From IMG/VR virus record IMGVR_UViG_2850773344_000006: a DNA stretch of 35,652 bases. The stretch is one strand, 5' to 3'. Shown here one piece after another: positions 2,585 to 14,170 of this stretch. Every line of letters starts with the position of its first letter. The first letter of the stretch is position 1. Below the pieces are notes generated by a model. The model was not told the origin of the DNA and did no database searches. It saw only the letters and a list, made by a program, of their open reading frames with translations. The DNA is from a virus (lineage: Duplodnaviria; Heunggongvirae; Uroviricota; Caudoviricetes). The position numbers and the translations under genes are program-made.

Positions 2585-2672
2585 CTGATTTTCATTCAAA
2601 CTCGCGCTATCGAACATCCATCAGCCAGCCGTGGCACGTTCTTGCATACGACGTGCTACGGTTTCCTTTACG
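2585..2672. repeat. Roughly 90-bp conserved element with an imperfect hairpin, copy A (paralogue at 14081..14170)
   Basis: ttcattcaaactcgcgctatcgaacatccatcagccagccgtggcacgttcttgcatacgacgtgctacgg aligns at roughly 80 percent with 14081..14170. Confidence 0.6.
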
Positions 2673-2804
2673 ATTTGGGGTTGCGACTTTACCTCTATTG
2701 ATAATGCATTCCGGCAGAACGTTCAAATATGAAGTACGATGTTTAACTAACCGAAAAACAAGAACAATACGGTGCAAGCAAGCTATTCACAGTTAACTGA
2801 AACA

Positions 2805-2821
2805 GTATCGTTTTTTTACAG
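2805..2821 (+). promoter_or_regulatory. MxiE box (GTATCGTTTTTTTACAG) of the ipaH promoter
   Basis: Exact match to the remembered MxiE-box consensus GTATCGTTTTTTTANAG; TATAAT at 2841-2846, 19 bp downstream; ipaH start codon at 2941. Confidence 0.8.
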
Positions 2822-2940
2822 CCAATTTTGTTTGTCCTTTTATAATAAAAAAGTGCTGAAGTTCATTTCATGGAATGAACTTCATAAAAACTCCTACTTA
2901 TTTCTTTTAACAAAGCCATTTGTCCATCGGCTTTAACTGA

Positions 2941-4596
2941 ATGTCCATCATGTTACCGATAAATAATAACTTTTCATTGTCCCAAAATTCTTTTTATAAC
3001 ACTATTCCCGGTACATATGCTGATTACTTTTCAGCATGGGATAAATGGGAAAAACAAGCGCTCCCCGGTGAAAATCGGAATGAAGCGGTCTCCCTACTTA
3101 AAGAATGTCTCATCAATCAGTTCAGTGAGCTTCAACTGAATCGTTTAAATCTGTCCTCGCTACCTGACAACTTACCACCTCAAATCACTGTTCTGGAAAT
3201 TACTCAGAATGCCCTAATATCATTACCAGAATTGCCAGCATCTCTGAAACATCTTGATGTAGATAACAACCAACTAACCATGCTTCCTGAATTGCCTGCA
3301 TTGCTGGAATATATTAATGCAGATAACAATCAGCTAACCATGCTTCCTGAATTACCTACATCGCTGGAAGTGCTCTCAGTAAGAAATAACCAGCTGACAT
3401 TTCTCCCTGAGTTACCTGAATCACTGGAAGCGCTCGATGTAAGTACTAATCTTCTGGAAAGCCTACCAGCCGTACCTGTAAGAAATCATCACTCAGAGGA
3501 AACCGAGATATTTTTCCGGTGCCGCGAGAATCGCATCACACACATTCCGGAAAATATACTTAGCCTTGATCCGACCTGCACTATCATCCTCGAAGACAAT
3601 CCTCTGTCCTCACGGATCAGGGAGTCTCTGTCGCAACAAACCGCCCAACCGGACTACCACGGCCCACGGATTTACTTCTCCATGAGTGACGGACAACAGA
3701 ATACACTCCATCGCCCCCTGGCTGATGCCGTGACAGCATGGTTCCCGGAAAACAAACAATCTGATGTATCACAGATATGGCATGCTTTTGAACATGAAGA
3801 GCATGCCAACACCTTTTCCGCGTTCCTTGACCGCCTTTCCGATACCGTCTCTGCACGCAATACCTCCGGATTCCGTGAACAGGTCGCTGCATGGCTGGAA
3901 AAACTCAGTGCCTCTGCGGAGCTTCGACAGCAGTCTTTCGCTGTTGCTGCTGATGCCACTGAGAGCTGTGAGGACCGTGTCGCGCTCACATGGAACAATC
4001 TCCGGAAAACCCTCCTGGTCCATCAGGCATCAGAAGGCCTTTTCGATAATGATACCGGCGCTCTGCTCTCCCTGGGCAGGGAAATGTTCCGCCTCGAAAT
4101 TCTGGAGGACATTGCCCGGGATAAAGTCAGAACTCTCCATTTTGTGGATGAGATAGAAGTCTACCTGGCCTTCCAGACCATGCTCGCAGAGAAACTTCAG
4201 CTCTCCACTGCCGTGAAGGAAATGCGTTTCTATGGCGTGTCGGGAGTGACAGCAAATGACCTCCGCACTGCCGAAGCCATGGTCAGAAGCCGTGAAGAGA
4301 ATGAATTTACGGACTGGTTCTCCCTCTGGGGACCATGGCATGCTGTACTGAAGCGTACGGAAGCTGACCGCTGGGCGCAGGCAGAAGAGCAGAAATATGA
4401 GATGCTGGAGAATGAGTACTCTCAGAGGGTGGCTGACCGGCTGAAAGCATCAGGTCTGAGCGGTGATGCGGATGCGGAGAGGGAAGCCGGTGCACAGGTG
4501 ATGCGTGAGACTGAACAGCAGATTTACCGTCAGCTGACTGACGAGGTACTGGCCCTGCGATTGCCTGAAAACGGCTCACAACTGCACCATTCATAA
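2941..4596 (+). CDS. ipaH: IpaH-family type III secreted effector, LRR domain plus novel E3 ubiquitin ligase (NEL) domain
   Basis: 551-aa ORF. N-terminus M(SI)MLPINNNFSLSQNSFYNTIPGTYADYFSAWDKWEKQALPGE, tandem LxxLPxLP leucine-rich repeats, conserved C-terminal domain with the CEDRVALTWNNLRKTL catalytic Cys motif. The true start may be the second ATG at 2950. Confidence 0.9.
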   Translation: MSIMLPINNNFSLSQNSFYNTIPGTYADYFSAWDKWEKQALPGENRNEAVSLLKECLINQFSELQLNRLNLSSLPDNLPPQITVLEITQNALISLPELPASLKHLDVDNNQLTMLPELPALLEYINADNNQLTMLPELPTSLEVLSVRNNQLTFLPELPESLEALDVSTNLLESLPAVPVRNHHSEETEIFFRCRENRITHIPENILSLDPTCTIILEDNPLSSRIRESLSQQTAQPDYHGPRIYFSMSDGQQNTLHRPLADAVTAWFPENKQSDVSQIWHAFEHEEHANTFSAFLDRLSDTVSARNTSGFREQVAAWLEKLSASAELRQQSFAVAADATESCEDRVALTWNNLRKTLLVHQASEGLFDNDTGALLSLGREMFRLEILEDIARDKVRTLHFVDEIEVYLAFQTMLAEKLQLSTAVKEMRFYGVSGVTANDLRTAEAMVRSREENEFTDWFSLWGPWHAVLKRTEADRWAQAEEQKYEMLENEYSQRVADRLKASGLSGDADAEREAGAQVMRETEQQIYRQLTDEVLALRLPENGSQLHHS

Positions 4597-12247: not shown

Positions 12248-13101
12248 ACGTGCTACTGGAACCCTTCAGCTATGAATATATGCTCAATGCGATGTGGGTC
12301 TCGGCAATGGTCGGCGGTCTCTGCGCTTTCCTGTCATGCTATTTGATGCTAAAAGGCTGGTCGCTGATTGGCGATGCGCTGTCGCACTCTATTGTCCCGG
12401 GTGTTGCGGGGGCATATATGCTGGGGCTTCCGTTTTCTCTGGGAGCCTTCTTTTCCGGCGGACTGGCAGCGGGCAGCATGCTGTTTCTTAACCAACGCAC
12501 CCGCTTAAAAGAAGATGCCATCATCGGCCTGATCTTCTCGTCCTTTTTTGGCCTGGGGCTGTTTATGGTGTCATTGAACCCGACATCCGTGAACATTCAG
12601 ACCATCGTCCTAGGCAATATTCTGGCAATCGATCCGGCGGATATCCTGCAACTCACTATCATTGGCATTCTCTCGATCATCGTGCTTTTTTTCAAATGGA
12701 AAGATCTTATGGTGACCTTTTTCGACGAGAATCACGCCCGTGCTATTGGATTACATCCGGGCAGATTAAAAATCCTCTTCTTCACCCTGCTGTCGGTTTC
12801 GACCGTTGCGGCGCTGCAAACGGTTGGTGCCTTTCTGGTGATCTGTCTGGTGGTGACTCCCGGTGCAACAGCATGGTTGTTAACCGATCGTTTTCCCCGC
12901 CTGCTCATAATTGCTGTAACTATTGGCAGTGTAACCAGTTTCCTCGGCGCGTGGGTCAGTTACTTTCTGGACGGCGCGACAGGTGGAATCATCGTGGTGG
13001 CGCAGACACTGCTGTTTCTTTTAGCATTTGTATTTGCGCCCACCCATGGACTTTTGGCAAATCGTCGGCGTGCGCATAAAGCGCTGGAGGATCGCTCATG
13101 A
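12244..13101 (+). CDS. sitC: ABC transporter permease
   Basis: 285-aa hydrophobic multi-span protein; start overlaps sitB stop. Confidence 0.85.
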
Positions 13102-13955
13102 TGGCATTATTACTGGAGCCACTGCAGTTCACCTTTATGAGTCACGCACTGCTGATTTCACTGGTAGTTTCCATACCCTGTGCGCTGCTGTCGGTCTTTC
13201 TGGTCCTGAAAGGTTGGGCACTGATGGGTGACGCGATGAGTCATGCGGTTTTTCCTGGCATCGTGCTTACCTGGATTCTGGGGTTACCTCTGGCTACAGG
13301 GGCATTCGTCGCCGGAGTATTCTGCGCGGTGGCGACGGGATACCTGAAAGACAACAGCCGAATCAAGCAAGATACAGTTATGGGGATTGTTTTTTCTGGC
13401 ATGTTTGCCGCAGGTCTGATCTTGTATATTGCAATTAAACCAGACGTACATCTTGACCATATTCTTTTCGGCGACATGCTCGGGATAACCATCGGCGATA
13501 TAATCCAGACGGTGATTATTGCCGGGCTGGTTACACTTGTTATTAGCGTAAAATGGCGGGATTTTTTGCTGTTCAGCTTTGATTATCAACAGGCGCAGGT
13601 AAGCGGTTTGCATACGAGATGGCTGCATTATGGGCTGCTGTGCATGGTTTCCCTGACCATTGTGGCGACGCTGAAAGCAGTAGGTATCATTCTCTCTATT
13701 TCTCTGCTCATTGCGCCTGGCGCCATTGCAGTACTCCTGACACAACGCTTTCATATTGCGCTCCTACTGGCGACTGGCATATCGGTAATAGTGTCAATGA
13801 CTGGTGTCTGGCTGTCCTTTTTTATCGACAGCGCACCAGCTCCGACGATTGTCGTCTTATTCGCGGTCGTGTTCATCATGACGTTTACCGTTACCAGCAT
13901 CAACGCACGCACAAAGGGAAACGCCCATACACAGGATCTGTTATCACCCAATTAG
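13098..13955 (+). CDS. sitD: ABC transporter permease
   Basis: 285-aa hydrophobic paralogue of the preceding permease. Confidence 0.85.
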   Translation: MMALLLEPLQFTFMSHALLISLVVSIPCALLSVFLVLKGWALMGDAMSHAVFPGIVLTWILGLPLATGAFVAGVFCAVATGYLKDNSRIKQDTVMGIVFSGMFAAGLILYIAIKPDVHLDHILFGDMLGITIGDIIQTVIIAGLVTLVISVKWRDFLLFSFDYQQAQVSGLHTRWLHYGLLCMVSLTIVATLKAVGIILSISLLIAPGAIAVLLTQRFHIALLLATGISVIVSMTGVWLSFFIDSAPAPTIVVLFAVVFIMTFTVTSINARTKGNAHTQDLLSPN

Positions 13956-14080
13956 CACAACATCCGAGGACAGCATCGTCCGCCAGCCTACAGAAGTCCG
14001 GAAAGCCATGGAAGGTCGTTGGGAGGAGGTACGAATTCTATCATGCAAAAAATACGTAAAATCGATAACGCCTAGAAATC

Positions 14081-14170
14081 ATTCAATACTCGCACTATCG
14101 AAAGTTTACCAGCCAACCGCGGCACGTTCCTGCATACGACGTGCCGCAGCTTCTGTTATTCCACGATAAA
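14081..14170. repeat. Roughly 90-bp conserved hairpin element, copy B
   Basis: 8-bp stem GCGGCACG/CGTGCCGC at 14119..14147; aligns with 2585..2672. Lies between the sitD stop and the tfa copy 2 stop. Confidence 0.6.

Follow-up and report, generated by a model that had tools for sequence, protein, structure and literature searches.

Two imperfect repeats stand at island junctions in a 35,652-nucleotide stretch of tailed-phage DNA (Caudoviricetes; IMG/VR record IMGVR_UViG_2850773344_000006), which is referred to here as the window. Both repeats, copy A beside ipaH and copy B beside sitD, are probably orphaned 3′ untranslated region (UTR) or 3′-end hairpin modules of dinI genes from lambdoid prophages. 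In the proposed arrangement a DinI-family (SOS-type) gene would sit at the prophage end nearest the attachment (att) site and be transcribed inward, toward the last late gene of the tail-fibre module, and the repeat would mark the boundary between the tail-fibre genes and a slot for cargo genes, or morons. The module would comprise a TAnnnT hexamer after the dinI stop codon, a helix P1 around a conserved loop of ~30 nucleotides (nt), an 11-bp helix P2 with a conserved 9–11-nt loop, and a T-rich tail. This tail often shares bases with the converging gene's stop codon. P2 and the T-tract on the plus strand would end and stabilise the dinI-like transcript, or here the sit transcript, and would insulate the converging transcription units from each other. 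By likeness to Klebsiella DinR, and because the loops are conserved, we suggest that the ~90-nt 3′ fragment may also be an RNA, made by processing or from its own promoter; the hairpin possibly serves the minus strand as well. The position of the repeats is ordinary, since ipaH and sit fill the cargo slot beside the tail-fibre genes of two degraded lambdoid prophages. An apparent island-junction repeat would thus be an everyday consequence of prophage architecture, and the repeat a conserved marker of the slot.

Copies in the window and their fold

A covariance model built from 94 relatives of the element (R1), run with filters off, finds exactly two matches in the window, both on the plus strand. 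Copy B scores 117.8 bits (14047–14161, E 6e-36) and copy A 100 bits (2560–2673, E 3.4e-30, model positions 1–116); the third-best match reaches 8.5 bits. The copies are 79% identical without gaps over 71 nt (2600–2670 versus 14088–14158) and 76% identical over a longer MAFFT alignment, and their longest identical run is 14 nt. The core GGCACGTTCYTGCATACGACGTGC matches twice in the window and never in 100 shuffles. These results bear out an earlier sequence-only reading of the window, which had noted two copies of about 80% identity. Its boundaries (~90 bp, 2585–2672 and 14081–14170) need correction: the unit spans ~105–115 bp (~110 bp), with a left edge ~25 bp further out. The 8–9-bp stem described there is 11 bp in copy A and pairs at 10 of 11 positions in copy B, and a second helix, P1, had been overlooked. 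The TGCATACGACGTGC core described there is really the 3′ part of the P2 loop together with the 3′ arm of P2. The parts of the two copies are as follows.

2560..2673, plus strand: copy A, a complete type I dinI-3′UTR-like unit (R1 match, alignments)
2546..2575, plus strand: promoter-like TTGAAT-18-TAAAAT at the 5′ edge of copy A (scanner, 9/12 matches; putative function)
2570–2575, plus strand: second hexamer of that candidate promoter, the family-conserved TAnnnT (sequence)
2583..2626, plus strand: helix P1 of copy A, GGCTGAT (2583–2589) and ATCAGCC (2620–2626) around the conserved loop TTTCATTCAAACTCGCGCTATCGAACATCC
2629–2639 and 2651–2661, plus strand: arms of helix P2 of copy A, with loop TCTTGCATACG at 2640–2650 (RNAfold centroid, covariation)
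2662..2669, plus strand only: T-tract TTTCCTTT 3′ of copy A P2 (sequence)
14047..14161, plus strand: copy B, complete; pairing is broken at two P1 positions and at one basal P2 position (R1)
14057..14062, plus strand: TAAAAT hexamer of copy B, ~100 nt past the sitD stop and without a usable −35
14117..14149, plus strand: helix P2 of copy B, arms 14117–14127 and 14139–14149, loop TCCTGCATACG at 14128–14138

Copy A has an A-T pair in P1 in place of the G-C pair of the family, a compensatory change, and its P2 includes one G·U pair. The promoter scanner calls nothing at copy B. The tail of that copy reads CTTCTGTTA, and its last three bases (14156–14158) are the stop codon of the minus-strand DUF4376 gene.

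In the 94-sequence alignment, 92.6% of cells in the two specified helices are paired, against 26–58% when the partners are slid by 1–3 columns. The covariation analysis that the sequence-only reading had proposed shows changes on both sides in 14 of 17 pairs (101 cells), with none of 500 shuffles reaching the observed values on any pairing measure, a significance somewhat overstated by the relatedness of the sequences and by a structure taken from one of them. All 11 P2 pairs covary, single stem positions show G-C, A-U, C-G and G-U, and RNAalifold independently recovers P2 as the terminal hairpin. The loops are conserved and the stems variable, a pattern that is unusual for a plain terminator.

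The plus strand is favoured by three asymmetries, in the T-tract, the G·U pairs and the 5′ hexamer. In 59% of copies the 8 nt that follow P2 hold at least four T residues, and in 44% at least five; not one copy has at least four A residues in the 8 nt before the stem on the same strand. Over 64 haplotypes there are 74 G·U against 39 A·C pairs. At the 5′ edge the hexamer TAnnnT is present in 79 of 88 distinct contexts, with a −10-like profile (T93 A94 n59 A95 A90 T97).

How far the hairpin resembles a terminator can be stated for each copy. Copy A has the expected order of stem and T-tract, an 11-bp stem followed by TTTCCTTT, and the copy B tail CTTCTGTT is the weaker T-tract. The hairpin lies downstream of a same-strand stop codon of DinI-family open reading frames (ORFs) at 68 of 124 loci and at 10 of 12 loci of a second type described below, and, in one locus, behind a methyltransferase gene; among the window copies, only copy B lies past a same-strand gene, ~160 nt after sitD. 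The terminator proposed in the sequence-only reading is upheld in its position after plus-strand stops and in the T-tract frequency, and is qualified by the non-canonical 9–11-nt loop and a silent scanner.

Two further candidates were set aside. A sigma-54 promoter (TGGCACG-N-TTGCA in copy A) has a GG-to-GC spacing one base short, and most copies have GCAGCACG. Likeness to a hix- or gix-type invertase site is no more than vague, and the Pin genes meet the element with their 3′ ends. A small minus-strand ORF from an ATG in the P1 loop, annotated in phi80 as gp26 'antisense to dinL', was also rejected: it varies in length and attains 60 amino acids (aa) in two contexts only.

Relatives, gene context and orphan status

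Chance similarity is refuted by the genome-wide BLAST search, which places the element at 17,371 positions in 5,396 of 5,426 complete E. coli genomes (median 3 and maximum 10 per genome). BLAST also finds it in at least 193 phage records, including HK97, phi80, phiP27 and Stx phages. The exact core occurs outside E. coli in Citrobacter, Salmonella arizonae, Trabulsiella, Pantoea and E. albertii. Matches on contigs labelled Chryseobacterium, Lysobacter, or Bacillota or Caldithrix metagenome-assembled genome (L128, L131, L137, L147, L148), some with dinI, lie on tiny contigs or are identical to E. coli prophage types, and were treated as contamination.

Gene context was read from ~120 viral contigs retrieved by a 22-mer from the left half of the element. 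At 68 of 124 viral loci a plus-strand ORF ends 2–17 nt before the unit. They fall into two clusters that diverge from each other, both of the DinI family (Pfam PF06183), and 33 of 60 DinI ORFs have a LexA box (CTGT-N8-ACAG) upstream; the phi80 record carries an annotated LexA site upstream of its dinI-like gene. The same upstream arrangement holds for most copies outside Escherichia (Citrobacter, Pantoea, Trabulsiella, Salmonella arizonae). Between the two DinI clusters the unit is 74% identical and the coding sequence 59%.

On the right side, a minus-strand ORF of at least 100 aa lies within 400 nt at 72 loci, its stop codon most often 0–20 nt from the hairpin. These neighbours are stf-like at 20 loci, tfa at 13, Pin-type invertases at 12 and DUF4376 genes at 6. 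The dinI-like gene and the last gene of the tail-fibre module converge tail-to-tail at the element. In the annotated phages the element always comes next after the final tail-fibre gene:

HK97: with tfa on one side and the sib/attP/int region on the other
phi80: flanked by the tail-fibre gene and the convergent dinL
HK633: flanked by stf and int
phiP27: 235 bp from attR

A second sample was retrieved by a 15-mer from the hairpin loop to avoid circularity. Its left half is well conserved, with 1–4 substitutions, and the copy A variant recurs in it as a lineage; across both samples, exact patterns within the element fetched most copies, which inflates the apparent conservation of those stretches. 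The second sample also revealed a 'type II' left half (TCGGGTAATATTCCCGA...GCTCGGGCATGAACACTGAGC, with small hairpins of its own), an unrelated body that carries the same terminal hairpin and loop (L186, L193, L201, L205, L211, L220, L229, L230 and L236 among others). At 10 of 12 type II loci a DinI ORF lies upstream and an stf gene faces it. Taken together, the type I and type II contexts give an invariant order: dinI-like gene, structured 3′ UTR, shared hairpin, and facing last gene of the tail-fibre module.

In K-12 MG1655, R1 finds three copies, all unannotated:

1632461–1632577: full copy in Qin, 184 bp inside its left end, upstream of ynfT-ydfK-pinQ and facing tfaQ/stfQ
~1434720–1434810: degraded copy in Rac, ~150 bp inside its right end
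ecpE-ykgJ spacer (DH1 locus L125, 3995–4109): full copy, co-oriented with ykgJ, whose start codon follows 30 nt downstream

The copy at ykgJ is near-universal and has a frameshifted dinI pseudogene directly upstream (tblastn E 5.8e-6), so the unit outlives its dinI gene. Because this copy ends 30 nt before the start codon, ykgJ transcription must start within the element or read through it. In Qin, ynfT-ydfK-pinQ lies between the unit and tfaQ, which shows that cargo can separate the unit from the tail fibres.

Beyond the limits already given for the shuffles and the sampling, several observations weigh against the reading of the window copies as dinI 3′ modules with a plus-strand function. 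Upstream of the two copies there is neither a dinI gene nor a convincing remnant of one; candidate remnants were non-colinear scraps of 8–10 aa (E 0.016–0.44 against a tiny database) and were dismissed as chance. The window copies may be inert relics, with dinI gone and, in copy B, P1 damaged. Fewer than four T residues follow the stem in 41% of copies, and the terminator scanner, which expects a loop of 3–8 nt, calls neither copy on either strand. A decent −35 is found in about a third of contexts, copy A among them, no better than in shuffled sequence, and folding energy does not separate the strands (45 versus 47 copies, p = 0.2). The sole experimental RNA at the site, CssrB, comes from the minus strand. 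The copy at ykgJ has no chimeras among those listed in the RIL-seq (RNA interaction by ligation and sequencing) tables of enteropathogenic E. coli (EPEC), a weak negative. Plus-strand termination, processing and action in trans are all deduced from sequence features.

Cargo, prophage ends and surroundings

The neighbours named in the sequence-only reading (ipaH, sitD and a tail-fibre-associated gene) are confirmed by Pfam as NEL/LRR_TTSS, ABC-3 and DUF4376. The features on either side of the copies are listed here.

2673..4775, plus strand: ipaH cargo cassette with the CssrB body, GTATCGTTTTTTTACAG, ipaH and a GC hairpin (Pfam, sequence)
2805–2821: GTATCGTTTTTTTACAG, MxiE-box-like, 120 nt upstream of ipaH
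2857–2884, minus strand: terminator-like hairpin with a T-run in the 5′ region of ipaH
2941–4596: ipaH (NEL/LRR_TTSS, Pfam), inside the cassette between copy A and DUF4376 copy 1
4640–4659: GC-rich hairpin GAGGCCCG/CGGGCCTC directly past ipaH
4776..5399, minus strand: DUF4376 tail-fibre-assembly-like gene, copy 1 (Pfam PF14301, E 1.5e-15)
10506..13955, plus strand: sitABCD-like metal ABC transporter operon, running into copy B (Pfam, ORFs)
10506–11420: ZnuA-type sit gene (Pfam)
13098–13955: sitD (ABC-3, Pfam)
14156..14779, minus strand: DUF4376 tail-fibre-assembly-like gene, copy 2, abutting copy B (PF14301, E 1.6e-15)

Both DUF4376 genes encode 207 aa and are near-identical over ~680 nt. Their last ~60 nt (4776–4835 versus 14156–14215), that is, the C-terminal ~20 codons, share only ~70% identity, which places a recombination breakpoint inside the gene. 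Because these last codons diverge, we propose that the ipaH cassette came with its own tfa 3′ end through exchange within the gene. Copy A now lies 2.1 kb from DUF4376 copy 1. Copy B would have kept the ancestral contact with the DUF4376 stop codon and acquired sitABCD upstream; its hairpin is the first one downstream of sitD, ~160 nt past the stop.

One viral locus (L018, 1898–5781) shows how such an arrangement might be assembled. Along it stand a full unit, a tfa fragment, a plus-strand methyltransferase gene, a hairpin-only copy, the CssrB body, ipaH and a DUF4376 gene, in that order, and four other loci (L038, L073, L080, L108) share this arrangement. The hairpin-only copy lies 5 nt past the stop of the methyltransferase-like ORF (222 aa), and the left boundary of the ipaH cassette is a hairpin copy. 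Copy A would then be made of a full unit's left half and the right flank of this second hairpin, as recombination between two hairpin copies would give. Loci of this kind point to stepwise accretion of morons and their loss by recombination between hairpins.

These hairpin-only copies at cassette boundaries also fit a different idea, in which the element lacks any function as RNA and is either a conserved linker for homologous recombination among phage modules or what is left of a decayed coding sequence. Genes vary on both of its sides, copy A resembles a fusion of two hairpin copies, and two plus-strand frames are open in the consensus. We find this quite improbable. A linker would need identity rather than double substitutions that preserve pairing, seen here in 14 of 17 pairs, and the T-tract and G·U asymmetries are strand-specific; 1-nt indels among copies break any frame, and together with the covariation they led us to reject a plus-strand coding remnant.

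Attachment was a further suggestion of the sequence-only reading, and part of it survives: the element is the last feature before lambdoid prophage ends (184 bp inside Qin, ~150 bp inside Rac, 235 bp from the phiP27 attR and ~190 bp from the HK97 att core). That the two copies are themselves attL/attR or attP remnants bounding an inserted island is, in our estimation, extremely improbable. They are direct repeats and bracket 11.4 kb with ipaH and sitABCD, and in the HK633 record (NC_019719.1, 20680–20760; L002 2501–2581) an 81-bp 'attP' is annotated over the element. This label rests on resemblance to the K-12 ykgJ-yagV (ecpE-ykgJ) spacer, and is doubtful because that spacer is itself a prophage relic with a dinI pseudogene and the element. 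The HK97 core (21228–21248) lies apart from the element (20937–21040), as does the phi80 attP core (24623–24639) from its copy (22807–22906). The window copies lack an identical core, at 79% identity with a longest shared run of 14 nt, and no integrase lies between 2673 and 14046, where the mobile-element genes are insertion sequence (IS) transposases only. Compensatory changes in the stems indicate selection on folding and not on a protein-binding core.

The remaining window is a mosaic of IS elements and lambdoid prophage fragments, the latter including tail-fibre pieces, a Q-like DUF1133 gene, four tRNAs and an integrase. Four IS3-family copies or fragments (573–1752, 17021–17884, 22427–23669, 34410–35652) and an IS66-family element (5658–8272) are present, and three identical 769-bp repeats (8647–9415, 17885–18653, 25490–26258) have a size and copy number that suggest IS1-like elements. 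IS elements have broken up at least two lambdoid prophages in the window. On the minus strand, four tandem tRNA genes (21358–21665) are followed by an integrase-family ORF (19636–21240) that is unusually long (534 aa, DUF6538 N-terminus), and an array of 12-bp repeats (TAGAGGAGACCC and variants, 19092–19180) lies ~450 bp downstream of it. Rfam matches above threshold occur at 23750–23951 (minus) and 26898–27072 (minus), namely C4 antisense RNA (77.6 bits), its a1/b1 target (52.2), isrK (75.6) and sok/CssrC (118.1); those to C4, its target and isrK adjoin the Q-like DUF1133 gene (23971–24645).

Known RNAs and comparable modules

The only Rfam RNA that touches either copy is CssrB (RF02799):

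2630..2812, minus strand: Rfam CssrB match, cmscan 151.6 bits against a gathering score of 76

The 3′-terminal hairpin of CssrB (model positions 150–180, ~31 positions) is P2 of copy A read in antisense. The CssrB body (2673–2812) belongs to the ipaH cassette and lies outside the repeated element; conversely, the left ~70 nt of the element, P1 and its loop, lie outside CssrB, which is on the opposite strand. Copy B stays below the threshold (14118–14173, minus, 30.3 bits against 76), with the hairpin alone aligning. The Rfam CssrB model seems to have borrowed its 3′ hairpin from the element, in antisense, and this matters for the interpretation of CssrB hits. The sequence GTATCGTTTTTTTACAG at 2805–2821 presumably fits the MxiE-box consensus of type III secretion-regulated Shigella genes. 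The nominal CssrB 5′ end (2812) lies within this sequence, so CssrB and ipaH may be under one divergent control region.

CssrB brings in the possibility that the minus strand is the functional one, in which case the hairpin would be a terminator or exonuclease block at the 3′ end of the late tail-fibre operon and, at copy A, the CssrB terminator. In S. flexneri 301 a strand-specific probe detected a northern band of ~180 nt (PMC3071730), which fits an end at the hairpin, and Rfam models the hairpin as the 3′ end of CssrB; that end was taken from a terminator prediction and is unmapped (Peng et al. 2011, PMC3071730). The minus-strand stops of the tail-fibre module lie mostly 0–20 nt from the hairpin in four unrelated gene families, P2 stays with the tail-fibre side when the left half swaps from type I to type II, and copy B folds slightly better on the minus strand (z −2.54 versus −2.24). 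We nevertheless judge this somewhat unlikely. The hairpin on the CssrB strand has no U-tract, nor does the minus strand of any other copy, G·U pairs favour the plus strand by 74 to 39, and ~60 nt of conserved, covarying P1 and loop would be left unexplained. Late lambdoid transcription is Q-antiterminated and ignores intrinsic terminators. The two strand readings are compatible, and the hairpin may work on both.

With the plus strand taken as the functional one, a rival and somewhat unlikely reading is that the unit is a trans-acting RNA of ~85–95 nt, independent or derived from a 3′ UTR, which would act as a counterpart of DinR or as a small RNA (sRNA) sponge, its loops pairing with host or phage RNAs. 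This would suit conserved loops on covarying stems, a TAnnnT hexamer with a −10-like profile, a terminator-like T-tract at the 3′ end as is typical of Hfq sRNAs, and the linkage to dinI genes with LexA boxes. Two 5′ bodies on one 3′ hairpin recall EcOnc01–03, DinR provides a precedent, and full-length orphan copies without dinI persist in nearly all E. coli. Several points stand on the other side. The −35 is weak in the largest cluster, the P1 loop tolerates 1–4 substitutions and a 1-nt deletion, and the EPEC tables list no chimeras with the ykgJ copy. Rfam 15, searched with both strands of the element, returns nothing but CssrB, and the named sRNAs AgvB, AsxR, Esr41 and STnc100, all in Rfam, do not match it. 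PasA–D are excluded, as the PasB probe is absent and PasA, PasC and PasD belong to the Q-lysis region; the element is missing from the EcOnc22 and EcOnc31 loci; and EcsR2 differs in lying in the yagU-ykgJ spacer, on the other side of ykgJ. The Salmonella ST313 transcriptome paper gives dinI-gfoA only, and no sRNA. For the small RNA suggested in the sequence-only reading, what holds is that Rfam CssrB, on the minus strand, has the copy A hairpin as its 3′ end and that the plus-strand anatomy is like that of a 3′-UTR sRNA; the plus-strand unit itself has no Rfam match.

It is conceivable, if doubtful, that the element represents an undescribed and widespread family of prophage RNA genes, with ~17,000 copies in ~5,400 E. 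coli genomes and further members across several genera of enterobacteria. If so, the usual discarding of multi-copy reads and the filing of the hairpin under CssrB, on the wrong strand, may explain why it has escaped notice, and orphans next to ipaH and sit, or 30 nt before ykgJ, could remain at work as regulators or attenuators. Whatever its function, the element is a structured RNA motif with strong covariation, near-universal in E. coli and Shigella, linked to dinI and absent from the libraries searched. It can also serve as a landmark for moron and effector insertion sites in prophages.

The closest parallel to a dinI 3′ module is DinR, an Hfq- and RNase E-dependent sRNA that originates at the 3′ end of Klebsiella pneumoniae dinI mRNA and represses ftsZ (PMC10907235). 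Like the element, DinR is a structured segment at the 3′ end of a LexA-controlled DinI-family gene and ends in a terminator hairpin. Unlike it, DinR is chromosomal and 157 nt long, is released by an RNase E cut inside the coding sequence, and has experimental links to Hfq and ftsZ, whereas the element is prophage-borne, multi-copy, spread across genera and known from sequence alone. The DinR authors call its pairing stretch Klebsiella-specific; the likeness drawn here is one of location and build. The location in the 3′ UTR of a LexA-controlled DinI gene is seen in relatives of the element and not in the window copies. Whether other dinI 3′ ends behave likewise was left open in that study (PMC10907235), and the element is a concrete candidate outside Klebsiella.

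A second parallel is the EcOnc01–03/AgvB/AsxR group (Tree et al. 2014, PMC4104026), which is likewise lambdoid and multi-copy and combines one 3′ hairpin with alternative 5′ bodies. These RNAs differ in lying near stx and Q-lysis regions, and there is no sequence or covariance-model match between the element and AgvB or AsxR. Lambdoid morons offer a third. Juhala and Hendrix in 2000 reportedly described moron boundaries and terminators, and Tobe in 2006 exchangeable effector loci downstream of tail-fibre genes. The situation here is similar, in that hairpin-bounded cargo (ipaH, sit, the methyltransferase gene, ynfT-ydfK) lies beside tail-fibre genes. Moron terminators are generic, however, whereas the element is one specific hairpin, with a conserved loop and a covarying stem, found in thousands of prophages and tied to dinI.

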